The notes under the pieces were generated by a model that saw nothing but the letters and a program-made list of their open reading frames with translations, searched no databases and was not told where the DNA came from. Shown here piece by piece: positions 1 to 27,562 of a stretch of 64,000 bases of DNA; position 1 is the stretch's first letter; each line of letters opens with the position of its first letter. Source of the DNA: a virus (taxonomy: Duplodnaviria > Heunggongvirae > Uroviricota > Caudoviricetes); IMG/VR virus record IMGVR_UViG_3300012286_000299, positions 109,277 to 173,276 of that record; one strand, 5' to 3'. The position numbers and the translations under genes are program-made.

Positions 1-1
1 T

Positions 2-1111: not shown

Positions 1112-1139
1112 TAAGAACTTAATAAAAACTATAAGTAAT

Positions 1140-1712
1140 ATGAAAACAAGTAAGATTAACAAAGTGTTTAAAGTAGCAAAAGGTTTGTGTAAAGCAAATA
1201 ACACAGTAACTACTCTAGAAATTAAAAATGAATTGAGAAAAAAATACTCAAAAAGAAATTGGAGACAAGATGAAATTTCTCAAGTTATGGCTGATTTCTA
1301 TTTAGAGGGTAAATTTGATTACTTAGATAATGGTACATTCAGAGTGTATTCATTAGCAGGCACTAACCCAACATCAGCTCCAGCTACACAATCTACTGTA
1401 GTAAATAAAGTTGCAAAAGTAAAAGCACCAAAAGCTCCATTAACTACACAAAGAATTTCACGTACTAAAGCTTTGGATGTTATTCAAAACTCAAATGGTA
1501 AATTCTTCACAGTAACTTTCATTAAAAAAGATGGTTCACAACGTGTAATGAATGGTCAACATACATCAGATATGGGAGTAAGTCCATTAGGTTATATTTT
1601 AGTAAAAGATATGACAGCGGTACGTAAAAAAGAAACTTCAACTGTTAAAAGTGTAAATTTACAAACTATCGAAAGCATTAAATTAAATAATGTGTTGTTT
1701 AAAGTAGATTAA
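1140..1712 (+). CDS. hypothetical basic, Lys-rich protein
   Basis: 190-aa ORF tightly spaced after the upstream gene and followed by a strong intrinsic terminator. Confidence 0.5.
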   Translation: MKTSKINKVFKVAKGLCKANNTVTTLEIKNELRKKYSKRNWRQDEISQVMADFYLEGKFDYLDNGTFRVYSLAGTNPTSAPATQSTVVNKVAKVKAPKAPLTTQRISRTKALDVIQNSNGKFFTVTFIKKDGSQRVMNGQHTSDMGVSPLGYILVKDMTAVRKKETSTVKSVNLQTIESIKLNNVLFKVD

Positions 1713-1732
1713 ATTTTAAAAATTATTCAAAG

Positions 1733-1759
1733 AGAGCTTGCTTACGCAAGCTCTTTTTC
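1733..1759 (+). terminator. rho-independent terminator
   Basis: Perfect hairpin agagcttgc-ttac-gcaagctct followed by a T5 run, which merges into the tcgtatatttaagtat promoter-like motif. Confidence 0.7.
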
Positions 1760-1790
1760 GTATATTTAAGTATATTAATTTAAAATAAAG
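1757..1790 (+). promoter_or_regulatory. conserved phage promoter-like element (ttcgtatatttaagtatatt...aaaggttATG)
   Basis: First of more than 30 copies of the same motif found about 15-35 nt upstream of ORF starts. Confidence 0.5.
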
Positions 1791-1793
1791 GTT

Positions 1794-2054
1794 ATGAAGT
1801 TTTTAAGATTTCTTTTTGGAGTTCTGATAATGCCTGTAATAGGTTGTTTAGAAATTTTTCTAGCAATAATGTTTCTATGTTGGGCATTTAGTGGATTTGG
1901 GTTAATTATGATAGCTATAGATTATACTGATCATAATCATCATTTTACTTGGGTAGGGTATAGTTTAATGGTTTTAGATGCTATAATATTAATACTGTTT
2001 CTATATGAGCATGTAACAAATGTTTACGAAAAAGTTTATAAAAATCAAAATTAA
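1794..2054 (+). CDS. small hydrophobic membrane protein
   Basis: 86-aa ORF with two or more predicted transmembrane helices (FLRFLFGVLIMPVIGCLEIFLAIMFLCWAF...), immediately downstream of the promoter motif. Confidence 0.5.
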   Translation: MKFLRFLFGVLIMPVIGCLEIFLAIMFLCWAFSGFGLIMIAIDYTDHNHHFTWVGYSLMVLDAIILILFLYEHVTNVYEKVYKNQN

Positions 2055-2059
2055 AAGTT

Positions 2060-2413
2060 ATGTTTAAAAAATTATTCGCTTACAAACCAACAGAGCAAGA
2101 ACAGCAGTTTATAGACATTGTTAAAGATTTATTAAATCATCCTGACACTGTAGTGAGAATGTCTTTTTATTCAAGAAAGTACTTTTTGACTAACGAGAAA
2201 AAGCATTACTATATGATGCTACAATGGCCAAATGTACAAGTAACTAATACTAAGTTTTCATTTTGTAAATCAATGCATCCAAAAGCATATGATATAATTT
2301 TAAAATTAGTACATGATTATATTGAAAAAGATCGTCAAGCGTTAGAAGATCATATTTTTGCAAACGAAAATAAAATGCTTGAACAAGTAAGAACTAAATT
2401 ACAATTAGCATAA
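2060..2413 (+). CDS. hypothetical protein
   Basis: 117-aa ORF; its stop overlaps the start of the next gene. Confidence 0.45.
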   Translation: MFKKLFAYKPTEQEQQFIDIVKDLLNHPDTVVRMSFYSRKYFLTNEKKHYYMMLQWPNVQVTNTKFSFCKSMHPKAYDIILKLVHDYIEKDRQALEDHIFANENKMLEQVRTKLQLA

Positions 2414-2652
2414 TGTATACAAAAAATATTTACATAGAAGGATTTTTAACTCGTAATGGGTTTAAAAAAATGAATGAAAATGATTTTGCTAATATGAAAT
2501 GTGTTGTAAAAGTTTTTCCCAAATATTATGAAATAGTATTTAATGATGATGAATTTGGGGAAATGACAATGTATACTGATAATATTTCAATACCTCAATT
2601 AGTAGGTATTTTAACTTGGCACGGTTTAATTGATAAAGATTACAATAAATAA
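2413..2652 (+). CDS. hypothetical protein
   Basis: 79-aa ORF in an ATAATG overlap chain. Confidence 0.4.
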   Translation: MYTKNIYIEGFLTRNGFKKMNENDFANMKCVVKVFPKYYEIVFNDDEFGEMTMYTDNISIPQLVGILTWHGLIDKDYNK

Positions 2653-2927
2653 TGAGAGTAAAACATAGTAAATTTAAAGATTGTGAATTTGTCGTTAGTG
2701 TTGATACTGATGGTAAAAGTTTTACATTAGTAAAAGATCCTTATCCGGCTTATGATGTTAAACCTGATTACTACATTTATTGGAGAAATATAGGAGAAGA
2801 TATTAGAACAGCAGGAAGAACATTATTACGTACTCCTTCAGGACGTAAAGTATCACAAAGTAGAGCTACTAAAATATTACATAATATGATAGCAGCATCA
2901 AAACAACTAACATTTAGCAAATTATAA
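2652..2927 (+). CDS. hypothetical protein
   Basis: 91-aa ORF in an overlap chain. Confidence 0.4.
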   Translation: MRVKHSKFKDCEFVVSVDTDGKSFTLVKDPYPAYDVKPDYYIYWRNIGEDIRTAGRTLLRTPSGRKVSQSRATKILHNMIAASKQLTFSKL

Positions 2928-3160
2928 TGGCAGCACTATCAGACAACAAATACGATGTATTTAATTGGATTATAAAAGTTTATGATTCATGTGAGAATGT
3001 ATCTCAAATAATAACAACAGAAAAATTAATTCGAAACTTTTATAAAATGTACGACGATTATACTTTGTATGATAAGTTACAGGACTATTATTTCGAAGTA
3101 TCAGAAAGACTACAACAAAAAGTAGATAAAAAGACTAGAAAACAAATACTAAAAGGATAA
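2927..3160 (+). CDS. hypothetical protein
   Basis: 77-aa ORF in an overlap chain. Confidence 0.4.
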   Translation: MAALSDNKYDVFNWIIKVYDSCENVSQIITTEKLIRNFYKMYDDYTLYDKLQDYYFEVSERLQQKVDKKTRKQILKG

Positions 3161-3163
3161 ATT

Positions 3164-3565
3164 ATGACATTTATACAGAAATACGTAGACTTTATCTTAG
3201 ATAACATCATACAGGATAATATAAGAGTTCAGCTTTACAAACCTTTTGAAGATGGTTCAAGAATGATTACAAAGATAGGACCTACAGTACATTGTAAAGT
3301 AAAGATTGAAGTAATTGAAAAGTATACACGATCTGCTAAACTAAAACTGACCTTTGATAAATACGAAATCGAAGAACTATTCTTCATACCTTTCAGCTCA
3401 AGTCCAGAATCAATTGAAGGTAAGACACGAACTAAAATTGAAAAGATCGTAAATCAAACTTTCATTGACGATAACAGAACTGAGGATATAAAGCAGATGT
3501 ACGAACAACAACACAAGTTATTAGGAGAAGCACTATCAAAAATAGTAGGTAAGAAAAAAATATGA
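3164..3565 (+). CDS. hypothetical protein
   Basis: 133-aa ORF. Confidence 0.45.
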   Translation: MTFIQKYVDFILDNIIQDNIRVQLYKPFEDGSRMITKIGPTVHCKVKIEVIEKYTRSAKLKLTFDKYEIEELFFIPFSSSPESIEGKTRTKIEKIVNQTFIDDNRTEDIKQMYEQQHKLLGEALSKIVGKKKI

Positions 3566-3912
3566 AGCTAGATAAACAACTCACAACATTAAATCAAGTT
3601 GCTGGTGCTATGTTTTTAGCCAACTCTAGATTTAAAACACAAGCCCATATATCTTCTCAAATGCTAAATCCTGAATGCAATGTAGATCATGAGGAAAGAG
3701 TTAGATATGAAATAATACAAAATCTATCAAAGCATGCAGTTGATACTTTCTCCAAAGAAATTAAAAAACAACAAGTACATGATGGAGAAGTACATTCACT
3801 TGAATTATTTATATTTCCAACTGAAGCATTAAAACTAGCAGTAGAGTACATTATTTCAGAAATGCCACAATCAGAAATAGACAGAATAAGAACAACACCA
3901 ATTTTTATTTAA
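3562..3912 (+). CDS. hypothetical protein
   Basis: 116-aa ORF with an ATGA start/stop overlap. Confidence 0.45.
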   Translation: MKLDKQLTTLNQVAGAMFLANSRFKTQAHISSQMLNPECNVDHEERVRYEIIQNLSKHAVDTFSKEIKKQQVHDGEVHSLELFIFPTEALKLAVEYIISEMPQSEIDRIRTTPIFI

Positions 3913-4002
3913 GATTAAGTAAAATAAAATGGAAAAAGTTTGCTTATTTAGATTTTTCTTCGTATATTTAAGTATTATAAATTTAAAAAATAAATAAAAA
4001 TT

Positions 4003-4953
4003 ATGAAAAACATACACATAATACCAACTACAAAGTCAAATAAGTTGTATAAAAATCTATTAACAGATAAATTATTTATTTTAGAAAATTCATTTATGGA
4101 TGTTTCTGAATGTAATAGAGAATATCAAAACATCTACATCACTTCTGATGAAGAAATTAAAGAAGGAGATTATGGATTAATAGTAAATGAAGTATTATCA
4201 TATAGTCAAATGCACAAAAAATGGGGTATACCACAAGGTAAAAAAATCATTCTAACAACAGACCAAGACTTAATCAAAGATGGTGTACAACCTATTGATG
4301 ATGAGTTTTTAGAATGGTTTGTTAATAATCCAAGTTGTGAAAGTGTTGAGATTGAAGAATTATGTGGTGGATGTGGCAGTAATGATGGGGACTGTTGGAG
4401 AAGTAAAGAGTGTAATAAAGGGTATTATAAAAATAAATACAAAATAATCATTTCAAAAAAAGAACCTAAACAAGACATAAACACTTGTAAAAACTTTGAT
4501 AGAGAAATTGGTTGTGATTTAGCAGATTGTCTTTGTGAAAAAGAAGAACCTACTCAAGAACTAGCTAAAACAGAAATTGATTGGTCAGGTTTTCCAAAAT
4601 CAACACAAGAACAAGTTGGTTTTACTGAACCAAATATCATTGATGAATGGTTAGATAAAAATGGTAGTCCAGAAATTGCTAAACAAGTTGATGAAGAAGC
4701 AAAAGAGTTATGTGAACAAGAAACACTTGAAGAAGCTTTGGAAAGATTATCTTTAACAGATACTAAAAAATTAAGTATATTTTTAGATGGAATGAGGTAT
4801 CAACAAGAAAGAAGTTATAGTGAGGAAGAAGTTAAAATAATGTACAGAAGTTTATGGACTCCGAAGGATTTTGGGTTTTATAGTTCTTATGAAATGGAAA
4901 GTAATTTTGAAGACGATTTTAATTTATGGTTTGAACAATTTAAAAAGAAATAA
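4003..4953 (+). CDS. hypothetical protein, paralog A, with a Cys-rich insert
   Basis: 316-aa ORF behind the promoter motif at about 3955-3975. Its N-terminal 60 aa and the blocks KKIILTTDQDL, DEFLEWF and EEPTQEL.KTEIDWSG are shared with ORF 5706..6194. It carries an extra CGGCGSNDGDCWRSKEC cluster. Confidence 0.55.
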   Translation: MKNIHIIPTTKSNKLYKNLLTDKLFILENSFMDVSECNREYQNIYITSDEEIKEGDYGLIVNEVLSYSQMHKKWGIPQGKKIILTTDQDLIKDGVQPIDDEFLEWFVNNPSCESVEIEELCGGCGSNDGDCWRSKECNKGYYKNKYKIIISKKEPKQDINTCKNFDREIGCDLADCLCEKEEPTQELAKTEIDWSGFPKSTQEQVGFTEPNIIDEWLDKNGSPEIAKQVDEEAKELCEQETLEEALERLSLTDTKKLSIFLDGMRYQQERSYSEEEVKIMYRSLWTPKDFGFYSSYEMESNFEDDFNLWFEQFKKK

Positions 4954-4954
4954 G

Positions 4955-5191
4955 ATGAAACAAACAGCAGTAGAATATTTAGAAAAAGAATTTAATACGT
5001 ATGGAACATTATTAAATGCTGATTTTATAAACGCAAAAGCAATGGAAAAGCAACAACAAGGCTATAGTGAAAATGAAGTTGAATTAATTGCTAATGAAAT
5101 GGTAAATTGGGCTATTGATAATATTGGTAATCCAAACCCTCAAAGTGGTAAAAAGTTTGATGAAGTTTTGGCTAAATATAAAAACAAATAA
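4955..5191 (+). CDS. hypothetical protein
   Basis: The track ORF 4871..5191 overlaps the upstream gene. The first ATG after the upstream stop (4955, MKQTAVEYLEKEF...) is the more likely start. Confidence 0.4.
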   Translation: MKQTAVEYLEKEFNTYGTLLNADFINAKAMEKQQQGYSENEVELIANEMVNWAIDNIGNPNPQSGKKFDEVLAKYKNK

Positions 5192-5196
5192 AAATT

Positions 5197-5547
5197 ATGA
5201 AAACAGAAATTGCAGAATTAGAAATTAACCAACTAAAATCAGAAGGATTAAATTTTGATTATGAGTTTACACAAAAAAATTATCTTAATTACTTAAACTT
5301 GTGTATTGAAAAAGAAGGTTATGATATAAAAACAATTATATCAAAATTAAAACAAAATGAGAAAATTATTTTTTCACTTAATTTAGGTGATAACTTCAAT
5401 GGTTCAAAAGACCAAAAAAAAGGTAGCATTTATTGGAAACACCCACAATATGGTTTGTGCATTAGAGTTCAGTCAAGTGAAAAAAGTTTACAAGAATGGT
5501 CTTATGAATTAGAAAAAACATTTTCCTTAACTCCTTCTAACATATAA
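5197..5547 (+). CDS. hypothetical protein
   Basis: 116-aa ORF. Confidence 0.45.
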   Translation: MKTEIAELEINQLKSEGLNFDYEFTQKNYLNYLNLCIEKEGYDIKTIISKLKQNEKIIFSLNLGDNFNGSKDQKKGSIYWKHPQYGLCIRVQSSEKSLQEWSYELEKTFSLTPSNI

Positions 5548-6273: not shown

Positions 6274-7509
6274 ATGGAAAAGAAAAACAACATAGATTCT
6301 CAGTATATTAAGCTACTAGAGGATATTTTAGAAAATGGTATTAAAAAACAAACAAGAAATGGTGAAACTATTTCAGTATTCGGAAGACAAATACGTCACG
6401 ATATGAAAGACGGTTTTCCGTTGCTTACAACCAAGAAAATGCCGTTCAAAACAATCGTAACAGAACTTCTTTGGTTCTTACGAGGTGATACCAATATTAA
6501 GTATTTGGTTGATAATAATTGTCATATTTGGGATGGTGATGCTTATAAGAATTATATAAATACCGCACCACCTACATTAGATGGGAAGTATTTATCACAA
6601 CCAGAATTTATTCATTGGATAAAAACAGATGATGAGTTTGCTAAGAAGTGGGGTGAGTTAGGTCCAATTTACGGTAAGCAATGGAGAGATATTCCTGTAA
6701 TAAAAGATGGAGATGTAGAAGGTCATAAGATATTAAGTAGTATAGACCAAATCCAAAACCTAATCAACGACCTTAAAACAAATCCAGACTCAAGACGATT
6801 AATGGTTAATGCTTGGAATGTTGGAGAATTAGACCAAATGGTTCTTCCACCTTGTCATTATGGATTTCAAGTTTATACTAGAGAGTTGACTAAACAGGAA
6901 CGTTGGATGGCTTATTGTAATAAATGTAATGAATTAAAAACAGAATCAATTATAGGTTCTACCGATGATAAAGTAATGGAAAGTTATTATCAAGAATATA
7001 ACATACCAACACGAGCAATCTCTTTAATGTGGAATCAACGTTCAGTGGATACATTCTTAGGTTTACCATTTAATATTGCTTCTTATGGATTGTTGTTGGA
7101 AATCATTGCTGAAATCGTTAACATGGTTCCTGACCAATTGATTGGTAATCTTGGTGATACACACTTGTATTCAAATCATATTGAACAAGCAAAAGAACAG
7201 ATTGGAAGAGAGCTTAATGAAGATGAGAGATATGAATTAGTAACCCAGCAAATGAGTAAACTAAGAGCGATCAGAGATGAAGATTACATTAATTACAATA
7301 TTCCAACTAGAACAAGACAACCTTATTCTTTACCTAAAGTAAGAATCAATACTGAATTCTGGAACCCTGGTACAGAAGATGGATGTGGAATGGGACCAGG
7401 AACTTATACAAAAGATATAGGTGCTCTTGTAGAAGGAATGGAAGTAAATGATTTTCAAATTGAGGATTATCAATCACATCCAACAATCAAAGCACCCTTA
7501 TCAAATTAA
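6274..7509 (+). CDS. thymidylate synthase (ThyA) family enzyme with two large insertions (TS, or dUMP hydroxymethylase-type)
   Basis: ThyA motifs are present: LWFLRGDTN, GPIYGKQWR, SRRLMVNAWNVGEL..LPPCH (active-site Cys), QRSVDTFLGLPFNIASY (Asn, hence dUMP-type) and GDTHLYSNHIEQAKEQ, with a ThyA-like C-terminus DFQIEDYQSHPTIKA. It is 411 aa against about 265 aa for ThyA, because of inserts of about 45 aa and about 60 aa. Confidence 0.75.
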   Translation: MEKKNNIDSQYIKLLEDILENGIKKQTRNGETISVFGRQIRHDMKDGFPLLTTKKMPFKTIVTELLWFLRGDTNIKYLVDNNCHIWDGDAYKNYINTAPPTLDGKYLSQPEFIHWIKTDDEFAKKWGELGPIYGKQWRDIPVIKDGDVEGHKILSSIDQIQNLINDLKTNPDSRRLMVNAWNVGELDQMVLPPCHYGFQVYTRELTKQERWMAYCNKCNELKTESIIGSTDDKVMESYYQEYNIPTRAISLMWNQRSVDTFLGLPFNIASYGLLLEIIAEIVNMVPDQLIGNLGDTHLYSNHIEQAKEQIGRELNEDERYELVTQQMSKLRAIRDEDYINYNIPTRTRQPYSLPKVRINTEFWNPGTEDGCGMGPGTYTKDIGALVEGMEVNDFQIEDYQSHPTIKAPLSN

Positions 7510-7740: not shown

Positions 7741-8079
7741 ATGAATTTTATAATAGGGTTTTTATTAGGTTTATTGGCACAAGTATTAACTTTTATACAA
7801 TTACAAGGTCAATTCAAGTTTACTTGGATGAGAGAAAATCCATTTTTTGTAGCATTATTAGGATTACCCATTTCTTATTTATTAATTAAATCTGTTAATA
7901 GATTAGTAATACACTTTGATGGTCAATTATGGCCATCAAGGTTAATGGGTTTTTCAATAGGAGCAATAGTTTTTACTTTAATGTCACGTTGGTTATTTAA
8001 TGAACCCTTTACTTTAAAAACTGTTGTTTGTTTAACATTAGCATTTTGCATATTAATGATTCAATTATTTTGGAAATGA
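7741..8079 (+). CDS. small membrane protein
   Basis: 112 aa with three or four hydrophobic helices. Confidence 0.45.
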   Translation: MNFIIGFLLGLLAQVLTFIQLQGQFKFTWMRENPFFVALLGLPISYLLIKSVNRLVIHFDGQLWPSRLMGFSIGAIVFTLMSRWLFNEPFTLKTVVCLTLAFCILMIQLFWK

Positions 8080-8378
8080 AAAATTTAGAAACATGTCACC
8101 ATTGTGGTGAAGAAAAAGAAAACTGTTATCATGGATTTATAGCAATGACTCTTCCAATTCCTGAAGCAGAAGCTAAAAAGGAAAAATGGGGAGGGAAAGA
8201 ATGGTGGAAAAATTTAGAAAGAACAGATCTTACTAAAGAAGAGATGGAAGAGTTAGATGGACTTTGTACGTATGACCAACTACTAAATACAGTTGGAAGA
8301 GGAGTGCAGTGTGATGATTGTGGAAAAAGAGAAGCAGAACTTTATGAAATATATTATCCAAAAAGTTTGGAATCTTAA
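8076..8378 (+). CDS. small zinc-binding protein (two C-x2-C pairs)
   Basis: ATGA overlap with the upstream stop; CHHCGEEKENC...CDDCGKRE. Confidence 0.4.
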   Translation: MKNLETCHHCGEEKENCYHGFIAMTLPIPEAEAKKEKWGGKEWWKNLERTDLTKEEMEELDGLCTYDQLLNTVGRGVQCDDCGKREAELYEIYYPKSLES

Positions 8379-8413
8379 AATAAATTTTGTATATTAAATA
8401 AAAAATAAAAGTT

Positions 8414-8590
8414 ATGTTTGATACAATTTTAAAATGGTGGAACAGAAAGTGGAGTAATTGGGAACTTGATACTCCTGATTGTAAAGTATTTAATGATGAT
8501 TCATCAAAACGGCCTTGGCAGATCTACGATAGATTTAAACGTACATCTAATGATGGGTTAGTAGAGTATAAAAAAGTTATTAAATCATGA
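8414..8590 (+). CDS. hypothetical small protein
   Basis: 58-aa ORF filling a gap, with an aaaagttATG leader. Coordinates approximate to 1 nt. Confidence 0.3.
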   Translation: MFDTILKWWNRKWSNWELDTPDCKVFNDDSSKRPWQIYDRFKRTSNDGLVEYKKVIKS

Positions 8591-8763
8591 GACAAATAAA
8601 CGACCATATGAAAGACGTAGTAGGTATCGAACCCGTACAAAAACCACAACAACCACAACCTTCATTCAATCCTTTAAAATGGAATTGGACAGCAATTATT
8701 ACATGGGCAATAATGGGATTTATTGCTTTCAATATTTTTAAATACTTATTTAGTTTAATATGA
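8587..8763 (+). CDS. hypothetical small membrane protein
   Basis: 58-aa ORF with ATGA coupling and a C-terminal transmembrane helix (WNWTAIITWAIMGFIAFNIFKYLFSLI). Confidence 0.3.
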   Translation: MRQINDHMKDVVGIEPVQKPQQPQPSFNPLKWNWTAIITWAIMGFIAFNIFKYLFSLI

Positions 8764-8924
8764 GATCATTTTACGTTATTGCATTAGCAATTATTTTATT
8801 ACCTATACCTTATTTTACAGGATTACCACAATGGTTAGCTTTAATACCAACTGCTTATTTGGTTTGGATATTTATAACCTCTTCTTGGTATGCTATTAAA
8901 CGTACATTCTTTAACAAAGACTAA
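8760..8924 (+). CDS. hypothetical small membrane protein
   Basis: 54-aa ORF with two hydrophobic helices, ATGA/TAATG coupled to its neighbours. Confidence 0.3.
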   Translation: MRSFYVIALAIILLPIPYFTGLPQWLALIPTAYLVWIFITSSWYAIKRTFFNKD

Positions 8925-9403
8925 TGATCTACACAATACAAAAAGGAAGTCATAGGAGTACCTGGTTACCTAAATTTAATACAAATACAATAATAAACTT
9001 TAAGTTTAAATTTTTATCTGATCCTTCATATATTTTAGGTAATAAATTAGATCAAGAAGACACTAACAAAATATTTGGAATATCAGATTCATGGTATCAT
9101 CGTAGACATTCAGTTAGATTAGGTTGGAGATATGATGACAAATTGCAAAAATCTATACTTTGTGTGTATTACTACAGAGATAGTAAACATTATACTCAAG
9201 ATTTAGGTGAAATGTATCAAGATAAAACATATTATGGTTTTATATCAATGTATAAAGATGAGTACATGATAGCATGTTTAGGAGATGTAATAACAATTCC
9301 AAGAACATCAAAATGGTGGGGTCCTCGATATTTATTGTTCCCATACTTTGGGGGACAACAAGTGGCACCAAAACAATTTAAAATAGAATTAACAAACTGG
9401 TAA
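8924..9403 (+). CDS. hypothetical protein
   Basis: 159-aa ORF immediately upstream of the deazaguanine genes. Confidence 0.45.
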   Translation: MIYTIQKGSHRSTWLPKFNTNTIINFKFKFLSDPSYILGNKLDQEDTNKIFGISDSWYHRRHSVRLGWRYDDKLQKSILCVYYYRDSKHYTQDLGEMYQDKTYYGFISMYKDEYMIACLGDVITIPRTSKWWGPRYLLFPYFGGQQVAPKQFKIELTNW

Positions 9404-9405
9404 AA

Positions 9406-9882
9406 ATGGGAAAATATCAATCAACAAAATTATTCGAGAACTACTCAGTAGCTATCAGACAATGGAAAGCACAACACTCACATTGTCAATTACTTCACGG
9501 ATATGCTTTAGAATTTAAAGTATGGTTTGAATCAATCGAACCTTTAGAAGAAAATCAATTAGACGAAATGAACTGGATCATGGACTATGGTGGGTTTAAA
9601 GAACAACCACAAGGAAACGGTTTAAAAGCATGGATGGACTATATGTGGGATCATACTCTACTAATCGAGAAAGATGATCCGCAATTAGAAACATTCCAAT
9701 ACATGCAAGAATTAGGTTTGTGTCATTTAAGAGTTATGGATAAGATTGGAGCTGAATCAGCTGCTAAACTAGTCTTCGATAAATTCAATGATGTAATGTC
9801 TAAGAATGGAGGAGGTAGAGTAAAAGTAGTAAAAGTAGAGTGCTGGGAAGCTCCTAAGAATTCATCAATTTATGGAGAGTAA
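9406..9882 (+). CDS. queD: 6-carboxy-5,6,7,8-tetrahydropterin synthase-like (QueD/PTPS family)
   Basis: About 158 aa with a C-x4-HGY..E.K motif (HCQLLHGYALEFKVWFE) resembling the PTPS/QueD Cys-x-His-Gly-His zinc site. Context between QueE-like and FolE genes. Confidence 0.5.
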   Translation: MGKYQSTKLFENYSVAIRQWKAQHSHCQLLHGYALEFKVWFESIEPLEENQLDEMNWIMDYGGFKEQPQGNGLKAWMDYMWDHTLLIEKDDPQLETFQYMQELGLCHLRVMDKIGAESAAKLVFDKFNDVMSKNGGGRVKVVKVECWEAPKNSSIYGE

Positions 9883-10747
9883 ATTTCTACAAGAGAATGG
9901 TTTTTTCGATGATAATACAGGAAAAATATCTCTAGCAGATAAATTAGAAGGTAAAACAAAACAGTATATGAAATTAAAAAGAATAGAAGATTACAACAAA
10001 ATACTGCCGATAGTAGAAGTCTATACAGCAGTACAATCAGAAGGAAGTAGAGCAGGATATCCTACAGTAGTAATTCGAACAAGTGGCTGTACTCACCGCT
10101 GCTGGTTCGGTGAAGGAGGTTGGTGTGATAGTCCATACACATCAATTCATCCAGAGAAAGGGAAATATTCATTCCAGAATATAATTGAAGCATACGACAG
10201 AAATCCTCACATCACAGAGATGATGTTAACTGGAGGATCACCAACAATGCATCCAGCATTAGTAAACGAATTAACACATTTTGCACATGAAAGAGGAATT
10301 TTTATTACTATGGAAACAGAGGGATCACATTACTTGGAAACAGACTTTCCGATTAATTTACTTAGCATTAGCCCTAAGTTTTCAAATTCAATTCCAGCAT
10401 TGGGAACCCGCACTCCAGGCGGTGACATCGTTGATGAAAAGATGGTTAAACAGCATAACAAACTTAGATTAAATTATGATGCAATGTCTAAGTCAATTGC
10501 GTATCATTCTGATTATCACCTGAAACCAGTGTGGGATGGAGAGGATGAAGGAGCATTGAAAGAGATTATGGCTTGCATTAAAATTCTAGATATTCCAGAA
10601 GACAAAGTTTGGTTCATGCCAGCAGGAGATTCAAGAGAGGCTTTATTCAAATCATATCCTAAAATGTTTGATTGGGTAAGAGATAATGGATATAGATTGA
10701 CTTGGAGACCACACATCATTGCATTTGAAGATAAAAGAGAAGTATAA
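9872..10747 (+). CDS. queE: radical-SAM 7-carboxy-7-deazaguanine synthase-like (QueE)
   Basis: Cys triad in SGCTHRCWFGEGGWCDSPY (non-canonical spacing, as known for some QueE), a glycine-rich SAM motif MLTGGSPTMHP, and a position adjacent to queD/folE. Confidence 0.6.
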   Translation: MESKFLQENGFFDDNTGKISLADKLEGKTKQYMKLKRIEDYNKILPIVEVYTAVQSEGSRAGYPTVVIRTSGCTHRCWFGEGGWCDSPYTSIHPEKGKYSFQNIIEAYDRNPHITEMMLTGGSPTMHPALVNELTHFAHERGIFITMETEGSHYLETDFPINLLSISPKFSNSIPALGTRTPGGDIVDEKMVKQHNKLRLNYDAMSKSIAYHSDYHLKPVWDGEDEGALKEIMACIKILDIPEDKVWFMPAGDSREALFKSYPKMFDWVRDNGYRLTWRPHIIAFEDKREV

Positions 10748-10803
10748 TATCATTTGGATATTAAAATAGAATTTATTACATTTACCTATTAAAAAAATTA
10801 TAA

Positions 10804-11499
10804 ATGACAGAAAATAGAAAAAAAGTCCACAACGATTTAGAAGTGGTACAAGTGGGATTTGCTAATGGTGTAGCACCTGGATTTCCCCTAAATGAGATTG
10901 AAAAACAAGGTATGATTGAGCAGGCTGCTGAAGCCTATGGTCAGTTTTTAACAGCATTAGGTTGTGATTGGAAAAATGATCCTAATAGTGCTGATACACC
11001 AAGACGTGTAGCTAAAGCCTATGTTAACGATCTATGGAAAGGTAGATATACTCCAATGTCTGAAATTACTTCATTCCCAAGTGATGGTTATGATGGGATT
11101 GTGATTGAAAGAAATATCCCTTTAACATCAATGTGTTCACATCACCACCAAACAATTGGAGGGGTAGTTCATATTGGGTATGTGGTAGGTGAAAATGGTA
11201 GAGTAATTGGTTTATCTAAATTAAACCGAATTGTAGAGCATTTTGGGCGTAGAGGTGCTATTCAAGAACAATTAACCTCTGCTATTCATCAAGCTGTAGA
11301 TAAAATTTGTGAAAATAATAGAGGTGTAATAGTTTCTATTGTTGGTACTCACAATTGCGTTTCTTGTAGAGGTGTTAAGCATCAAGGTGCTTCAATGATT
11401 ACAACTAAAGCATCAGGTGTTTTTATGGAGAATGGAAACTTAGCAAGAGAAGAATTCTTTGATTCAATTAAAATTAATAATGGTAATCATCCAGTATAA
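10804..11499 (+). CDS. folE: GTP cyclohydrolase I
   Basis: SMCSHHHQTIGGVVHIGYV matches the FolE zinc-site/active-site block (SMCEHH...VHIAY) in a 231-aa protein. Confidence 0.8.
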   Translation: MTENRKKVHNDLEVVQVGFANGVAPGFPLNEIEKQGMIEQAAEAYGQFLTALGCDWKNDPNSADTPRRVAKAYVNDLWKGRYTPMSEITSFPSDGYDGIVIERNIPLTSMCSHHHQTIGGVVHIGYVVGENGRVIGLSKLNRIVEHFGRRGAIQEQLTSAIHQAVDKICENNRGVIVSIVGTHNCVSCRGVKHQGASMITTKASGVFMENGNLAREEFFDSIKINNGNHPV

Positions 11500-11903
11500 T
11501 GGCTTTAAGAATTCATAATAAAATTTATTTAGGTTGGGATGATATTAATGATTTAATTGATACATTATGTTCAAAAATTATTACTGATCTTCCTAATATT
11601 GATTCAGTTCATGGTATAAAACGCGGTGGGTTAATTCCTGCCGTGTTGGTATCACATAAATTAGGTTTACCGTGGTCTGACGTGATGTTACCTAATACTT
11701 TAGTAATAGATGATATTTGTGATACTGGAGTTACTTTAAAAAATACAGTTGGAACTTATACGGCTGCTTTACATTATAAACCTCATACTTCTTGTTTTAT
11801 ACCTAATATTTATGCCCACGAACATAAAGGTGATGAATGGATTATCTACCCTTGGGAAAGAAAAGATTCAGAATCTATACAAGATTATTTAAAAACAAAA
11901 TAA
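11499..11903 (+). CDS. phosphoribosyltransferase (type I PRT) domain protein
   Basis: PRPP-binding motif LVIDDICDTGVTLK (compare HGPRT VVDDIVDTGGT) in a 134-aa protein. TAATG-coupled to folE. Confidence 0.5.
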   Translation: MALRIHNKIYLGWDDINDLIDTLCSKIITDLPNIDSVHGIKRGGLIPAVLVSHKLGLPWSDVMLPNTLVIDDICDTGVTLKNTVGTYTAALHYKPHTSCFIPNIYAHEHKGDEWIIYPWERKDSESIQDYLKTK

Positions 11904-11907
11904 AAAC

Positions 11908-12099
11908 ATGGCAAAAACTGAACAAATTCTCCAAATTACAGAAGTTATTTCAAATTTAGGAAAAGATCTTTTATCTGCAAATGAATCTAAAACAAATGCA
12001 TCATCTGAAGATCTACTTTTAATAGAACAAAATATTCAATATCTTGAAACTGTTTTACAAGAACATAAAGATAAACTTCAACAACTTATTTCTGAATAA
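11908..12099 (+). CDS. hypothetical protein (coiled-coil)
   Basis: 63-aa ORF. Confidence 0.35.
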   Translation: MAKTEQILQITEVISNLGKDLLSANESKTNASSEDLLLIEQNIQYLETVLQEHKDKLQQLISE

Positions 12100-12102
12100 T
12101 AA

Positions 12103-12492
12103 ATGACAGAAAATTTTGATCCAAATGCTCCTTCAAGAGGATTAGGTGATACAATTGCTAAATTTACTCATACAACTGGTATAGCTAAAGCTGTAGAAGT
12201 TGTAACGGGTGCTTTAGGAATAGAAGATTGTGGTTGTGGAAGAAGACAAGAATGGGTTAATAATTTAATTCCATATGAGAATCAGCCCAACCATAATGTT
12301 CAATATGATCCTAATAATGCTACAGAAGTAGAAGAAGGGATATATGAGGTAATGTATGAGATCCATGCTACTAAAGAAGGTAATAAATTTGATTACAAAG
12401 TAGGTGAAAAAATTTTGATAAATGAAAATCATTTATTATATTCAAATTGGCCTTATTATATAATGATAGGCGCAGTTAAAAAACAAAATTAA
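12103..12492 (+). CDS. hypothetical protein
   Basis: 129-aa ORF. Confidence 0.45.
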   Translation: MTENFDPNAPSRGLGDTIAKFTHTTGIAKAVEVVTGALGIEDCGCGRRQEWVNNLIPYENQPNHNVQYDPNNATEVEEGIYEVMYEIHATKEGNKFDYKVGEKILINENHLLYSNWPYYIMIGAVKKQN

Positions 12493-12501
12493 ATTAAAGT
12501 T

Positions 12502-13026
12502 ATGATTACAAAACCCAATGTACCTTTTATTGACGAGGTAGAAGAATTTAATGCCGTGATGGGCAAACCAAACAATTATGAACCAATTATTCCCGAAAGA
12601 AAAGAGTGGGAGTTCGTGTACAATTTCATCCTTGAGGAACTTGAAGAATATCGAGAAGCTTGCGAAGCAGGAAACATCGTGGAAGTTTTGGATGCTTTGT
12701 GCGATATTACTTATGTTGCCACTGGGAACGGTGCTATGCTACATGGCCTTAAGGGTAAGGTATGGCCGGCATATCAAGAAGTACAAGCTTCAAATTTATC
12801 GAAAGCTTGCCAAACTGAAGACGAAGCTAAAGCAACTGTCATTCAAAGATCGAGTGAACAAGGTGAAGAATGTCATTACGAAAAAGTTGGAGAATATTTC
12901 ATCGTATATCGAACAAGAGATAGAAAAGTAATGAAAAACGTAAATTACTTCAAACCAAACTTAAAACAATTCTTTACAGATAAAGAAATTCAAAAATCAT
13001 ATTTAATACAAATAACAGGAAATTAA
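12502..13026 (+). CDS. MazG-like nucleoside triphosphate pyrophosphohydrolase (putative)
   Basis: An all-alpha NTP-PPase-like motif: EELEEYREACEAGN..EVLDALCDITYVATG (E-E-x-x-E ... D metal-site pattern). Confidence 0.45.
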   Translation: MITKPNVPFIDEVEEFNAVMGKPNNYEPIIPERKEWEFVYNFILEELEEYREACEAGNIVEVLDALCDITYVATGNGAMLHGLKGKVWPAYQEVQASNLSKACQTEDEAKATVIQRSSEQGEECHYEKVGEYFIVYRTRDRKVMKNVNYFKPNLKQFFTDKEIQKSYLIQITGN

Positions 13027-13041
13027 TTTAAACTAGAAAAC

Positions 13042-13464
13042 ATGACAGCAATACAAGTATTAGGATTAATAGCATTTATAATAGCATTATCAGGTGTATT
13101 AGGGTTCTTATTTCAAGCCGGAAACGACGAAGAAGAAGAAGTTACATTTACTACTCCTGAGTATACTAAAGAAGAACTAGAAAATATTAAAGCTGCTGAA
13201 GCAGAATATAATAAACCTGTAGTAGCCGAAGAACTTGAAGTTACAGAACCTGAATTTGTAGCAAAAGGACTTAGTAGTACACCAGTAGCTCCGGAATTTC
13301 CAAACATAGGAAAGGATCTTACAAAAGTATTCCCACCAGATGCAACTATTAACACAGAAGAAATAGTAGAAACTAAATTGAAAAAGGTAAAAGAACCTAA
13401 ATCAGAGTTTCCAATTGATAAACCAAAGAAAAAAAGAAAATATTATCCTAAAAAAGCAAAATAA
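13042..13464 (+). CDS. membrane-anchored acidic protein
   Basis: N-terminal transmembrane helix, then a low-complexity E/P/K-rich region ending KKKRKYYPKKAK. Confidence 0.4.
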   Translation: MTAIQVLGLIAFIIALSGVLGFLFQAGNDEEEEVTFTTPEYTKEELENIKAAEAEYNKPVVAEELEVTEPEFVAKGLSSTPVAPEFPNIGKDLTKVFPPDATINTEEIVETKLKKVKEPKSEFPIDKPKKKRKYYPKKAK

Positions 13465-13539
13465 TATTAAATAAAGGTTAATTTTACATTATGGACTGAA
13501 TTAATTTAATTATTTTATAATCTGTCCATATTTATATGC

Positions 13540-14085
13540 ATGGATAAAAAAGTATGCAGTAAATGTAAAATTGAAAAAACTTTAGAAGAGTTTTCAATAG
13601 ATTTGTCTACTAAAAGTGGTAGAAAAAGTCAATGTAAAGAATGTAGAAAATTAATTTCTAAAAAGGAATATAAAAGTGATCCTTTATCTCATAATGTTAG
13701 AACTAGTGCTTATTATAAGGATAATAAAGAGTCTACTAGGAAGCAACAACGTGATTATGAAAGAAAACGTTTAAAAGTAGATCCCTTATTTAAATTAGGA
13801 AAATCAATGAGATGTCATTTGTATAGAATATTACAAGGACAAAAATCCATGAGTACTAAAGAATTATTAGGGTATAATGTTGAAGAATTAAAAATTCATA
13901 TTGAATCTCTTTGGGTAGAAGGAATGAATTGGGAAAATTGGGGTAAAGAATGGGAAATTGATCATATTTATCCTCTATCTCAATATTTAAAAGAAGGAGA
14001 AACTAGGCCTAGTATAATTAATAGTCTTAAAAATCTTCAACCTATAAGTAAAATTGAAAATCGAAAAAAATCAAATAAGTTATAA
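13540..14085 (+). CDS. HNH homing-type endonuclease
   Basis: N-terminal Cys4 (CSKCKIEK...CKECRK) and an HNH core EIDHIYPLSQ...NLQPISKIENRKK. Paralogous to 50911..51546. Confidence 0.65.
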   Translation: MDKKVCSKCKIEKTLEEFSIDLSTKSGRKSQCKECRKLISKKEYKSDPLSHNVRTSAYYKDNKESTRKQQRDYERKRLKVDPLFKLGKSMRCHLYRILQGQKSMSTKELLGYNVEELKIHIESLWVEGMNWENWGKEWEIDHIYPLSQYLKEGETRPSIINSLKNLQPISKIENRKKSNKL

Positions 14086-15812
14086 TGTATAAGAATATTG
14101 TTACGAATTCATTAGGGAAAAATAGATATAAGGTCATTTTATACACTGATGATGGAGTTGAAGAACATGAATTTCAAAATTATGCATATGAAGTGTGTAG
14201 CCAAAACCAGGCTACACATTTTGGTCTAAATGGAGAACCTTTAATGAAAACTACTTATTGGGATAAAACCAATCCCTTTATTCATTATCATGATATGCCT
14301 ATTCATCAAAAATTTTTAATTGATAAATATGGTACTAATGATGAACCCTCAACTACACATCAAGAAATATTTTTTGATATTGAGATTGAAATGGGAGGTG
14401 CTCTTACACCTGAGTACATTAGAAAAGCTCCAAAACCTGTTACTTCAATTGCTTGGTGGCATAAACAAGAAGATAAATGGTATATTTTAATTTTAGATAA
14501 AGATAATAAAATTGAAAAAACTACTATAGAGAATAAATATATTATTCCTGTACCTAACGAAAGAGAATTATTAAATAAGTGGTTAAATTATTTGAACAAA
14601 GTTAACCCTGATATCTTAATTGGCTATAATAGTGATTACTTCGATATACCTTACCTATACTATAGAATACTAAATCAATTAGGTGAACGTAGAGCTAATG
14701 CTTTCTCTCCAATAGGTAAAGTTAAAGAACAAAAACATTCAAATGAATCAGGAATGGTTTTTTGGAATGAAGAACAACCTATAAGAATAGAAGGAATGTA
14801 TTCTTTGGATTACATTCGCTTACATAAAAAATATTCGTTTGCAGATGAACCATCTTATAAATTAGATGCTTTAGGAGAAAAGTATTGTAAATTAGGTAAA
14901 ATTGAATATGAAGGTAGTTTAGACAGATTATTTGAAACTGATAAAGAAAAATTCATTGAATATAACTTTCGAGATGTTGAAATCCTAAAAGCACTTGATA
15001 ATAAATTTAATTATATTAGTTTAACTAAAAATCTAGCTCATAAGGGTAAAATCCATTATGATGATGTTTATCAATCATCTAAAATTCATGATGGAGCTAT
15101 TTCAGCATTCTTATTATCAGAAGATATAATTCCTCCTTCACGAGATAGAAACCCAATTAAAAAAGCTAATTACGCTGGTGGTTATTTGTTTTGTCCTAAA
15201 GCAGGGTTATATCGCTATATGTTTGATGAGGATTTAACTTCACTATACCCATCAATTATTATGTCTCTTAACATTGGTAAAGAAACATTAATAGGTAGAA
15301 TTATTGATTTAAATGATAGAAACAATCATTTAGGTTTAAATGATTTAATAAATGATATTGAAGATAGACCTCGTACTATGGAATGGTTTACTAATAAAGA
15401 TAAGTTCAGTAAAATTGATTGGACTTCTTCTAAAGTAGTTAAACTAATTCAACAATATAATTTGGCTATCTCAGCAAATGGTGTTATCTTTCGTACAGAT
15501 AAAGAGTCTGTATTATCAACTATTCTGAATAAGTGGTTTGATGAAAGGGTTTTATACAAAAATAAAATGAAAGCTGCATATAAAGCAGGAGATACAGTAG
15601 GTGGTGAGAAATATCATTTATTGCAATATACAATGAAAATCTTACTTAATTCACTTTATGGTGCTACAGCATTACCTTCATTTAGATATGGGAATGTAAT
15701 TCTATCAGAAGCAATCACTTTAAGTGGACAACGTATTATTCAAGAATCAGCACTTTGTGCTAACAGACATATGAACAAAGTTATTCGTGGTGAAATTAAA
15801 TTAGAGATATAA
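14085..15812 (+). CDS. family-B DNA polymerase, N-terminal fragment (3'-5' exonuclease plus polymerase motifs A and B)
   Basis: Exo I FDIEIEM, Exo II YNSDYFDIPYL, motif A DLTSLYPSIIMSLNIG, motif B KILLNSLYGA. Stop lies 50 aa after motif B. Confidence 0.85.
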   Translation: MYKNIVTNSLGKNRYKVILYTDDGVEEHEFQNYAYEVCSQNQATHFGLNGEPLMKTTYWDKTNPFIHYHDMPIHQKFLIDKYGTNDEPSTTHQEIFFDIEIEMGGALTPEYIRKAPKPVTSIAWWHKQEDKWYILILDKDNKIEKTTIENKYIIPVPNERELLNKWLNYLNKVNPDILIGYNSDYFDIPYLYYRILNQLGERRANAFSPIGKVKEQKHSNESGMVFWNEEQPIRIEGMYSLDYIRLHKKYSFADEPSYKLDALGEKYCKLGKIEYEGSLDRLFETDKEKFIEYNFRDVEILKALDNKFNYISLTKNLAHKGKIHYDDVYQSSKIHDGAISAFLLSEDIIPPSRDRNPIKKANYAGGYLFCPKAGLYRYMFDEDLTSLYPSIIMSLNIGKETLIGRIIDLNDRNNHLGLNDLINDIEDRPRTMEWFTNKDKFSKIDWTSSKVVKLIQQYNLAISANGVIFRTDKESVLSTILNKWFDERVLYKNKMKAAYKAGDTVGGEKYHLLQYTMKILLNSLYGATALPSFRYGNVILSEAITLSGQRIIQESALCANRHMNKVIRGEIKLEI

Positions 15813-16075
15813 TGGCATTAAAAGGACAATCAATTAGAAACGGGGTTACTATTAATATAAATGGTGTTAAAGCCGAAAAACAATTAGTTATTGATTTATC
15901 TGAAAATTGGGATGAATCACAAGAAAGATTCTTTAAGAAAATGCTTAAACAAGGAGGAAAATGTAAAGTTAATGGAAACTCATTTGAAATTATCCTCAAA
16001 GAAAGATCTGATATAGATTCAAAAGGAAATAGACCTATTAATTTACCACCAGTACCAGGAGAAAGAACATTTTAA
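15812..16075 (+). CDS. small ORF inside the polymerase split
   Basis: 87-aa ORF in a different frame, exactly filling the 264-nt insertion between the two polymerase cistrons. Confidence 0.35.
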   Translation: MALKGQSIRNGVTININGVKAEKQLVIDLSENWDESQERFFKKMLKQGGKCKVNGNSFEIILKERSDIDSKGNRPINLPPVPGERTF

Positions 16076-16076: not shown

Positions 16077-17012
16077 ATGAAACATTTAGAAGATACCCCA
16101 TGGTGGATATGTGATGAAGGTGATTTTAATTTTTGTGCTTATGTTGATACAGATTCTAATTATTTCAATGCTGAGCCATTATTGAAACATTTATATCCTG
16201 ATTTTGATGAAAAAACTGATCAAGAAAAAGATGATTTATTAGAGAAAGTAGCTCTTAAGTACCAAGATATTATAACTGAACACTATGATATACTTGCTAA
16301 AGAAGCCTTTAATATTAGTACACACCGATTAGAAATGAAAACTGAGTGTGTTATTCGTTCTGCTTATTTTAGAGCTACAAGACGTTATGCTCAATGGATT
16401 ACTAAAAAAGAAGGTATAGCAAAAGAGGAATTAGACATTAAAGGATTAGAATTTAAAAAAGCTAATTTCCCTAAATATTTTGGAAAGTTTTATCAAGAAA
16501 TTCTTGAATTAATCATTAAAGGTACTTCACAGAGTATTATAGATAAGAAAATTCATGAATTTAGACAAGAAGCAACCTCAACTGATATAGATTTTACCCT
16601 TATAGGTAACCCAACATCAGTTAAAACATTAAATGAGTATATAGCTTCCCACCCTAAACCAGGTAAAATATTATCTGAAATAAAATCAGGAGCTGGTGCA
16701 TCAGTTAAAGCTTCTATCAAACATAATGATTTATTACGATTTTGGCAATTAGATTCAAAACATAGTCAAATAGTACAAGGTGATAAAGTAAAATGGGTTT
16801 ATTTAAAAAATAACCCTTATAATATAGAAGCTATTGCATTTTTAGAATTTGATATGGCTGATAAAATCAAAGACTTCATTAATGAATATATTGATAGAGG
16901 GAAAAGTTTTGAAACTATATTACAGAAAAAACTACAAGGCTTCTATGATGACCTTGAATGGATGTTACCACCAGCAAATCCACTAATACATAAATTTTTT
17001 ACATTCAACTAA
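16077..17012 (+). CDS. family-B DNA polymerase, C-terminal fragment (motif C plus thumb)
   Basis: Own ATG; motif C CAYVDTDSNYF 22 aa from the start; KKANFPKYF (KxY-like). Confidence 0.8.
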   Translation: MKHLEDTPWWICDEGDFNFCAYVDTDSNYFNAEPLLKHLYPDFDEKTDQEKDDLLEKVALKYQDIITEHYDILAKEAFNISTHRLEMKTECVIRSAYFRATRRYAQWITKKEGIAKEELDIKGLEFKKANFPKYFGKFYQEILELIIKGTSQSIIDKKIHEFRQEATSTDIDFTLIGNPTSVKTLNEYIASHPKPGKILSEIKSGAGASVKASIKHNDLLRFWQLDSKHSQIVQGDKVKWVYLKNNPYNIEAIAFLEFDMADKIKDFINEYIDRGKSFETILQKKLQGFYDDLEWMLPPANPLIHKFFTFN

Positions 17013-25044: not shown

Positions 25045-25102
25045 TTAGATAAGATAAGTTTTCCATTGGGTACATATATTTATTATCATAAATACGTACC
25101 TA

Positions 25103-25774: not shown

Positions 25775-25797
25775 TTATTATATTAAAATAAAAAAAA

Positions 25798-27105: not shown

Positions 27106-27106
27106 A

Positions 27107-27559
27107 ATGAAAGATAAATTATCTATATGCCCACGTTGCGGGAGTGATGCTTGTTATGTCACTCCTGTAAATGAAGTAAAAAACAACTATTTCTGTTTTG
27201 GATGTGGTTTTCAAACAAATGACCTAATGAAAGAAGGTGAATTTGATTTTGAAACATATGAAGAACCATTACCTGAACTATATAAAGATCTTAAAAACAC
27301 TGATTCAGAAAAACGTGTTTGGTATCCAATTACTATTAATATTCAGGATAAAGGAACGGTATTTGCCAATGGAAAAACCAAAGATAATTGGACATGGGCA
27401 GGAGTAAAGGCCGTTGAAGTAAGCGAAGAAGAAAAAGGTAAATTTAAAATACCTGGTACTGAAGATTACTATACTCATAAAACTGATATTAAATCTTTAA
27501 AGAATTATCCACAAGATGATTTTATTGAAGCCCTAGATTATATAGGTTTTTATAATTAA
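27107..27559 (+). CDS. zinc-ribbon protein
   Basis: CPRCGSDACYV...CFGCGF at the N-terminus. Confidence 0.4.
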   Translation: MKDKLSICPRCGSDACYVTPVNEVKNNYFCFGCGFQTNDLMKEGEFDFETYEEPLPELYKDLKNTDSEKRVWYPITINIQDKGTVFANGKTKDNWTWAGVKAVEVSEEEKGKFKIPGTEDYYTHKTDIKSLKNYPQDDFIEALDYIGFYN

Positions 27560-27562
27560 TAT

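Follow-up and report, generated by a model that had tools for sequence, protein, structure and literature searches.

In place of canonical dG, which is fully replaced in both, the DNA of phage immuto carries fdPreQ1 and that of phage phiST carries dDG (Cui et al. 2023, PMC10516641). Each of these phages encodes a distant TGT homologue that was named DpdA3 (PMC10516641). The present analysis concerns a related gene module in a 64,000-nucleotide stretch of a Caudoviricetes record (IMGVR_UViG_3300012286_000299, positions 109,277 to 173,276), referred to as the window, which encodes FolE, QueD and QueE followed by a short phosphoribosyltransferase (PRT) and a MazG-like protein. From sequence comparison, and with a probability of about 80%, the window would hold the half leading from GTP to 7-carboxy-7-deazaguanine (CDG) of a complete DpdA3-type phage system that places a 7-deazaguanine base in DNA. 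QueC and DpdA3 are absent from the window and were found in the same genome, which encodes FolE, QueD, QueE, QueC and DpdA3, that is the full preQ0 branch together with a transglycosylase of the family associated with full replacement of guanine. A pathway seemingly devoid of QueC and a transglycosylase appears to be a DpdA3-type system of the known kind, with its genes in two separate places of the same genome.

Among isolates, nucleotide similarity is limited to the Flavobacterium phages vB_FspM_immuto, at 84% in parts of the module. The likeness to immuto extends to the proteins (QueE 87.5%, MazG-like protein 88%, FolE 65%, PRT 61% and QueD 45% identical; QueC 82% at the DNA level) and to the surroundings, with QueC upstream near a tRNA array and with ThyA and an EmrE-like gene before QueD. 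In immuto, however, the hydrolase gene is immediately followed by those for DpdA3, the formyltransferase DpdN, a thymidylate-kinase-like protein and QueF, whereas none of them stands at that position in the window's phage, whose DpdA3 is just 34% identical to that of immuto and is placed beside QueC. The polymerase of immuto belongs to family A and that of the window's phage is a split family-B enzyme. Homologues of immuto DpdA3, DpdN, thymidylate-kinase-like protein and QueF and of phiST DpdL, gp041 and DpdA3 were not found in the window.

The phiST system, which yields dDG, comprises FolE, QueD, QueE, DpdL, DpdA3 and MazG and has no QueC. It shares with the window a FolE-QueD-QueE core without QueC beside it, followed by a nucleotide pyrophosphohydrolase, and its QueE (72.7%), FolE (64%) and QueD (43%, with the same CxxxHGY motif) are recognizable counterparts. 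On the contrary, its DpdL decarboxylase and kinase-like gp041 are absent from the window and from the two further contigs described below (L187 and L273), its MazG has no detectable BLAST similarity to that of the window, and the window's genome has a QueC. In Campylobacter phage CP220, in which G is fully replaced by dADG, the DpdA3-family protein is 44% identical to that of immuto. The gene set of CP220 is disputed, being given either as FolE, QueD, QueE and QueC (PMC10484667) or as a synthesis ending at CDG (PMC10516641). CP220 differs from the window's phage by the phylum of its host and in that no PRT homologue was found with tblastn in Campylobacter DpdA3 phages; the QueC of the window's phage is orthologous to that of immuto.

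Another parallel comes from tubercidin biosynthesis, in which TubC, TubA and TubB correspond to FolE, QueD and QueE, TubE is a transferase joining CDG to phosphoribosyl pyrophosphate (PRPP) and TubG is a Nudix hydrolase (PMC6112128). The window has the same content in outline, namely FolE, QueD, QueE, a purine-type PRT, a nucleotide hydrolase and no QueC. Nevertheless, tubercidin is a Streptomyces secondary metabolite, TubE has 194 amino acids (aa), the hydrolase is of the Nudix and not of the MazG type, and the phage genome has QueC and DpdA3.

QueC and DpdA3 in the same genome

A preliminary description of the window had reported neither QueC nor a TGT/DpdA-like transglycosylase in it, and this was borne out. 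Pfam scans of nearly all plus-strand open reading frames (ORFs) of at least 75 aa in the window found no TGT, QueC or QueF. Pfam was dropped as a test for DpdA, being blind to the known DpdA3 of immuto and phiST and to phiST DpdL. Because of this blindness, custom hidden Markov models (HMMs) were built from 31 DpdA3 and 14 phage QueC sequences collected at related loci; in all ORFs of the six frames of the window and in all its stop-to-stop frames, both gave noise (best E 1.5-3.2 for DpdA3 and 0.9-1.8 for QueC). The 8,861 bp upstream of the window are covered by contig L187, which overlaps the window with 100% identity over positions 1-4123. An endolysin gene and a cluster resembling NAD salvage are located in this upstream part, and neither QueC nor DpdA3 is present there.

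Both genes were found farther away in the genome. All ten window proteins tested are recorded on a single JGI contig of 173,276 bp, which was also assembled from run ERR3489837, short Logan contigs of which carry window proteins. An exact 54-mer of the window had no match in IMG/VR, the PARP-like protein at the start of the window was at best 60% identical to a protein of the JGI metagenome contigs, and look-ups with the ORFs at 47-1111 and 62743-63087 gave no record. About 81 kb of this genome was read (window, L187 and L273) and about 92 kb is unseen. A profile made of 19 diverse DpdA3 sequences retrieved protein P0190 (261 aa, E 5e-112), which is recorded on one contig only, the 173,276-bp one. 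The same contig is recorded for QueC, for two neighbours of these genes and for four proteins of L187. P0190 lies on L273, a Logan contig of 8,616 bp from the same run (ERR3489837_692). The order on L273 is NrdA C-terminus, GH19-like lysin, holin, DpdA3, a 47-aa ORF, a 75-aa ORF, QueC and 14 tRNA genes, with the two genes of interest placed as follows.

L273 3085-3870: DpdA3 (P0190, 261 aa), assigned by the DpdA3 profile at E 5e-112
L273 4299-5252: QueC (317 aa), assigned by Pfam QueC PF06508 at 1.8e-35 and by the motif SLSGGMDSS

P0190 retains 18 of the 18 residues that are invariant across the 19 reference DpdA3 sequences. The QueC of L273, with 317 aa, and that of immuto, with 293 aa, are longer than cellular QueC, which has about 220-230 aa. 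The order NrdA, QueC, tRNAs, endolysin, ThyA and QueD agrees with that of immuto, and judged by this synteny the DpdA3-QueC block most likely lies about 15-25 kb upstream of the module, just past the readable sequence. The preliminary description had left open whether new steps without QueC lead to a CDG-derived product or whether the missing genes are located elsewhere. The search for queC and dpdA beyond the window, which it had proposed as a check, decided for the second, since both genes lie on L273 and on the same 173,276-bp genome; the first finds no support in a genome that encodes QueC and DpdA3.

Organization of the module and its FolE, QueD and QueE genes

With about 29% GC, the window is a GC-poor piece of phage DNA, and nearly every gene is on the plus strand. 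The six ORFs of the preliminary description are all present, and two small ORFs complete the module.

8924 to 9403, plus strand: jelly-roll accessory protein of 159 aa; no family match (Pfam, PHROG)
9406 to 9882, plus strand: QueD-like 6-carboxytetrahydropterin synthase, T-fold; Pfam PTPS 1.4e-11, PHROG QueD-like 2.6e-33
9872 to 10747, plus strand: QueE, radical-SAM 7-carboxy-7-deazaguanine synthase; PHROG QueE-like 2.3e-53, 87.5% identity to immuto
10804 to 11499, plus strand: FolE, GTP cyclohydrolase I; Pfam GTP_cyclohydroI 7.3e-43, NCBIfam FolE 4e-43
11499 to 11903, plus strand: short (134 aa) Gpt/XGPRT-like purine PRT; Pfam Pribosyltran 4.5e-7, NCBIfam PRK09177 3e-12
11908 to 12099, plus strand: ORF of 63 aa, variable accessory gene; no family match (Pfam, PHROG, NCBIfam)
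12103 to 12492, plus strand: ORF of 129 aa, variable accessory gene; PHROG 32048 (unknown function) 4.5e-5
12502 to 13026, plus strand: MazG/PRA-PH-like all-alpha nucleoside-triphosphate pyrophosphohydrolase; Pfam PRA-PH 3.4e-9, PHROG nucleotide pyrophosphohydrolase 6e-27

The MazG-like gene is followed by a 140-aa ORF, an HNH endonuclease gene and that of the family-B DNA polymerase, which is split. The genes are tightly packed: the QueD and QueE reading frames overlap by 11 nt, and the stop codon of FolE overlaps the start codon of the PRT (TAATG at 11497-11501). A scan of positions 8300-14200 gave zero terminators and fewer promoter-like sites than expected by chance. Translational coupling had been proposed for both the PRT and the MazG-like ORF; it holds for the PRT, joined to FolE by the TAATG overlap, and fails for the MazG-like gene, which is separated from the PRT by the two small ORFs (11908-12099 and 12103-12492).

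The claimed folE, QueD-like and QueE-like genes proved real by Pfam, PHROG and NCBIfam profiles and by identity to immuto and phiST, and the profile searches upheld both the QueD and the QueE assignment (PHROG 2.6e-33 and 2.3e-53). FolE scores 146.5 bits against a Pfam cut-off of 27, and four NCBIfam FolE models match it at 4e-43 to 3e-39, under their curated cut-offs. QueD reaches 44.8 bits with Pfam PTPS, above the cut-off of 22.4. Its motif is CxxxHGY where the canonical one is CxxxHGH, and the HC..LHGY variant is likewise found in the QueD of immuto and of phiST. These two phages, both with a CxxxHGY QueD, produce fully modified DNA (PMC10516641). QueE is matched by five NCBIfam models (3e-14 to 5e-7), all under their curated cut-offs, and its 28.3 bits with Pfam Radical_SAM fall slightly short of the cut-off of 29.5; it was accepted as QueE on its PHROG match and its identity to the immuto protein. 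It carries an N-terminal extension of about 33 aa.

The FolE-coupled phosphoribosyltransferase

The best profile match of the PRT is the NCBIfam xanthine PRT model PRK09177, at 46.3 bits against a cut-off of 138, residues 5-57 alone aligning well. Among PDB sequences it matches 4trb GpT-1, 1vdm and 1a95 XGPRT. E. coli Gpt (XGPRT) and the archaeal 6-oxopurine PRTs (PDB 1A95, 4TRB, 1VDM) are its best matches, and what they have in common can be read from the sequence: a 'KRGG' motif for the 'RGG' loop, 'VIDDICDTG' for VIDDxxDTG and a C-terminal W...PW element. They differ in length, since the phage protein has 134 aa and is about 30 residues shorter in the part that leads from the first helix-strand unit to the PRPP motif. 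The PRT is Gpt-like and not a true Gpt.

The pairing of this PRT with FolE is not restricted to the window and is also seen at L274 5331-6486 and L263 4944-5837. In aquatic Bacteroidota phages of IMG/VR, the PRT adjoins FolE in 61 of the 69 loci having both, in either gene order. In Brevundimonas phage MaInes, FolE is adjacent to a 'xanthine PRT', beside ribonucleotide reductase (RNR) and a dNMP kinase. An N-terminal extension of 117 aa, about 30% identical to the PRT, is apparently fused to FolE in Stenotrophomonas phage vB_SM_ytsc_ply2008005c, and this fusion sits inside a canonical queE-queC-queD-folE-dpdA cluster. Adjacency, start/stop overlap and apparent fusion attest to a close pairing of PRT and FolE in unrelated phages. 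A described role for such a PRT was not found in the literature on phage deazaguanine clusters, the main papers of which never mention a phosphoribosyltransferase.

The PRT most likely salvages guanine to GMP and then GTP for FolE, as its pairing with FolE and its resemblance to xanthine-guanine PRTs suggest. A phosphoribosylation of a deazapurine base, by analogy with tubercidin, would be a much less likely role. The preliminary description had proposed the PRT and MazG-like genes as new steps, for example in a modified-dNTP route. Both are conserved parts of the module (72 and 62 of 83 related loci, respectively). The modified-dNTP route is less favoured than a supply of guanine nucleotides because the PRT is xanthine-guanine-like and is found with FolE in a canonical dpdA cluster.

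The MazG-like protein and the accessory open reading frames

The MazG-like protein, the immuto counterpart of which is gp208, had no significant match among PDB sequences. As judged from its family profiles and conservation, it is a conserved partner that would act on the nucleotide pool.

Homologues of the 63-aa ORF are confined to few close contigs (L007, L027/L118 and L043). The 129-aa ORF has a conserved GLGDTIAKFTH...CGCGRRQEW region and was found in about a dozen related loci, each time between the PRT and the MazG-like gene. The 63-, 129- and 140-aa ORFs were rejected as enzymes: they are small, variably present and devoid of enzyme-like features, and Pfam, PHROG and NCBIfam give such a role no support.

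The 159-aa ORF upstream of QueD had been put forward as a candidate for a new step, which did not hold. It has a polysaccharide-lyase-like jelly-roll fold and is found in unrelated phage contexts, and a profile search of PDB sequences with it returned nothing. It was rejected as a pathway enzyme on fold and genomic context; the protein neighbours the module and probably stands outside the pathway.

Conservation among related phages

An IMG/VR scan with QueE gave 252 relatives, 80 loci of which were kept; with L001-L003 they form the set of 83 loci. In addition to the PRT and the MazG-like gene, a DpdA3 of the immuto type was found in 40 of them, a DpdA3 of the phiST type in 11 and DpdL in 10. 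The order of the window, QueD-QueE-FolE-PRT-(63 aa)-(129 aa)-MazG-(140 aa)-split PolB, is repeated in L004, L023, L027, L030, L031, L036, L042, L043, L046, L050, L073, L078, L079, L082 and L083.

In several lineages with a family-B polymerase (L027, L073, L083, L032, L037, L047 and L077), a second block was observed 2-8 kb upstream of QueE, consisting of a DpdA3 about 33% identical to that of immuto and a QueC with the motif SLSGGMDSS. In four relatives (L027, L073, L083 and L037), QueD/DpdA3/QueC and QueE-FolE-PRT-MazG are present in one locus. DpdA3 with QueC in the absence of QueF, DpdN and DpdL is a common type: 123 of all the DpdA3 loci collected carry QueC with none of these three nearby.

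In the closest relatives of the window, the DpdA3-QueC block was not found within the readable 5-18 kb upstream of QueE. On the contig of L004, neither DpdA3 nor QueC is present up to 18 kb upstream of QueE, and in IMG/VR scans with the DpdA3 and QueC of the relatives the contigs of L004, L023, L030, L042 and others were never among the matches. A true loss of both genes in the window's phage looked plausible from these closest relatives and was overturned by the presence of both on the 173,276-bp contig.

In L004, the closest IMG/VR relative, about 390 nt are inserted in QueE (9980-11268) behind the N-terminal extension, and a tyrosine-recombinase-like ORF of 267 aa lies upstream of it (4474-5277). 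In L118, which is from the same contig as L027, a close relative with the DpdA3-QueC block, the DpdA3 gene (10001-10783) has an in-frame stop at the invariant Gly184 and is either a pseudogene or the result of a sequencing error.

Proposed pathway and alternative explanations

With the chemistry of each step assigned by homology, FolE would convert GTP to dihydroneopterin triphosphate, QueD would yield 6-carboxytetrahydropterin and QueE would yield CDG, all three from window genes. QueC, encoded outside the window and upstream of the 14-tRNA array, would then turn CDG into preQ0 by way of ADG, and DpdA3, also encoded outside, would swap guanine in phage DNA for the deazapurine base. As for the PRT, we infer that it would turn guanine from base exchange or from host DNA breakdown into GMP and refill the GTP used by FolE, a loop in which each guanine taken out of DNA could be rebuilt into deazaguanine. 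The base predicted for the DNA is dPreQ0 and, less likely, dADG. The choice of dPreQ0 relies on the orthology of QueC to the immuto QueC, which must supply preQ0 to QueF. By analogy with the other DpdA3 phages, the modified base probably reaches high occupancy. Within the 81 kb read, no tblastn or HMM match was obtained for QueF and DpdN of the preQ1 branch, known from immuto and phiSM; for DpdL of the dDG branch, a QueD paralogue with the motif LxxxHRHxF, there was no tblastn match, and an HMM from 11 sequences gave a best E of 0.27. The HMMs for the thymidylate-kinase-like gene and phiST gp041 were also without match there.

Several points weigh against this reading. The placement of DpdA3 and QueC relative to the window comes from synteny, and QueF, DpdN or other tailoring genes in the remaining 92 kb may exist and would change the final base. 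The phage QueC lacks the CxxCxxC-type cysteine cluster, which binds zinc in cellular QueC. Cellular purine PRTs have roughly 30 residues more than the phage PRT between the pyrophosphate-binding region and the PRPP motif, and the AlphaFold2 model of the phage protein has a pLDDT of 50 from a shallow alignment. Finally, no activity of DpdA3 has been demonstrated, either in vitro or in E. coli, where attempts failed (PMC10516641).

This last point leaves room for a route in which DpdA3 has a minor or different role. The PRT would phosphoribosylate CDG or preQ0 as in tubercidin synthesis, kinases and RNR would lead to a modified dNTP, the MazG-like enzyme would destroy dGTP and the polymerase would incorporate the modified nucleotide. 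PRT and MazG-like genes are indeed embedded in most clusters of this phage group, the immuto cluster adds a thymidylate-kinase-like gene and that of phiST a P-loop kinase-like gene, and a replacement of 100% is unusual for post-replicative exchange. That TubE is a PRPP transferase specific for CDG is proven, and its cluster comprises FolE, QueD, QueE, PRT and nucleotide hydrolase without QueC (PMC6112128; bioRxiv 10.64898/2026.04.15.718813). Moreover, replacement of G is 100% in DpdA3 phages and does not exceed about 30% with those DpdA subfamilies that have been tested in phages, and cells infected with CP220 contained the ADG nucleoside (PMC10516641). However, the genome does encode DpdA3 and QueC, the nearest characterised relatives of the PRT are xanthine-guanine and 6-oxopurine PRTs, and no PRT homologue was found by tblastn in the Campylobacter DpdA3 phages. 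The FolE fusion of the PRT-like domain, in a phage whose dpdA is canonical and not of the DpdA3 type (annotated as queuine tRNA-ribosyltransferase), and the FolE-PRT pair beside RNR in Brevundimonas phages both point to GTP supply instead. Such a nucleotide route is considered unlikely, and in the same way it is improbable that the short FolE-coupled PRT would be a TubE-like transferase serving, with dGTP clearing by the MazG-like enzyme, a pre-replicative 7-deaza-dGTP route. If true, this would explain the 100% replacement that is now credited to DpdA3. The substrate of the FolE-linked Gpt-like PRT, an enzyme under-described in the literature, would bear on whether complete guanine replacement is post-replicative.

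Q-pathway genes in phages were historically read as serving tRNA modification, and QueC directly adjoins the 14-tRNA array; the module could accordingly make queuosine precursors for tRNA, of the host or of the phage's own array, and not for DNA. This is very improbable, given that the transglycosylase is of the DpdA3 family, so far associated with DNA modification only, and that immuto and phiST, with orthologous QueE, FolE and QueD, hold deazaguanine in DNA at full replacement (PMC10516641). Even less credit is given to the idea that the window's phage lacks both genes and stops at CDG, the DpdA3-QueC contig being that of a second, co-occurring phage. It would fit with the lack of a single contiguous sequence joining L273 to the window, with the several close relatives showing neither gene 5-18 kb upstream of QueE and with the stop codon at an invariant Gly in the DpdA3 of one relative. 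Nevertheless, DpdA3, QueC and two neighbours are each recorded on exactly one contig, the 173,276-bp one (JGI and Logan), as are the ten window proteins and the four upstream proteins, both pieces are from run ERR3489837, and the gene order is syntenic with immuto. The preferred reading, a DpdA3-type system split over two places, would add to the known carriers an uncultured, T4-like, family-B-polymerase lineage of aquatic Bacteroidota phages predicted to have dPreQ0 or dADG DNA.

Other features of the window

Upstream of QueD, the thymidylate synthase gene (6274-7509) encodes 411 aa, a length that suggests large insertions (366-423 aa in relatives). Two genes are found just 5' of QueD, one for a small four-helix membrane protein (7741-8079; EmrE-like annotation in immuto) that is present in 30 of the 83 related loci, and one for a Zn-ribbon protein (8028-8378) conserved in 21 of them. 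Downstream of the module, the family-B DNA polymerase consists of two ORFs separated by a conserved one of 87 aa (14085-15812, 15812-16075 and 16077-17012), an arrangement common to all polymerase-B relatives examined.

A PARP-like gene (399 aa) begins 88 nt before the window (window 1-1111). It closes a cluster (L187 4322-9972) that also holds a Prs-like PRTase (298 aa), NADAR, a nucleoside 2-deoxyribosyltransferase-like protein (154 aa) and a NAPRTase/Nampt-like protein (545 aa), and that we take to resemble phage NAD-reconstitution counter-defence pathways. At 23620-36384, a glycosyltransferase block (GT1, GT2 and GT4) was observed together with a HAD-nucleotidyltransferase fusion and a methyltransferase, and a comparable block is present in immuto. 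ARAGORN detected one aberrant tRNA-like element (55298-55367, anticodon undetermined); a 29-nt stretch in it (55342-55370) matches L273 6249-6277, just upstream of the L273 tRNA array.

A perfect (100%) tandem duplication with a period of 871 nt, real or an assembly artefact, links 59080-59379 to 59951-60250 and repeats two small ORFs (59038-59499 with 59569-59805, and 60056-60370 with 60440-60676). In the same region, the 28-nt intergenic motif TTTGAGGTATAAWTTWACTTCGTATATT occurs on the plus strand in 6 copies with at most 3 mismatches (57857-61162), versus 0 expected. Each copy lies upstream of a small ORF, and the motif is probably a phage promoter or regulatory element.

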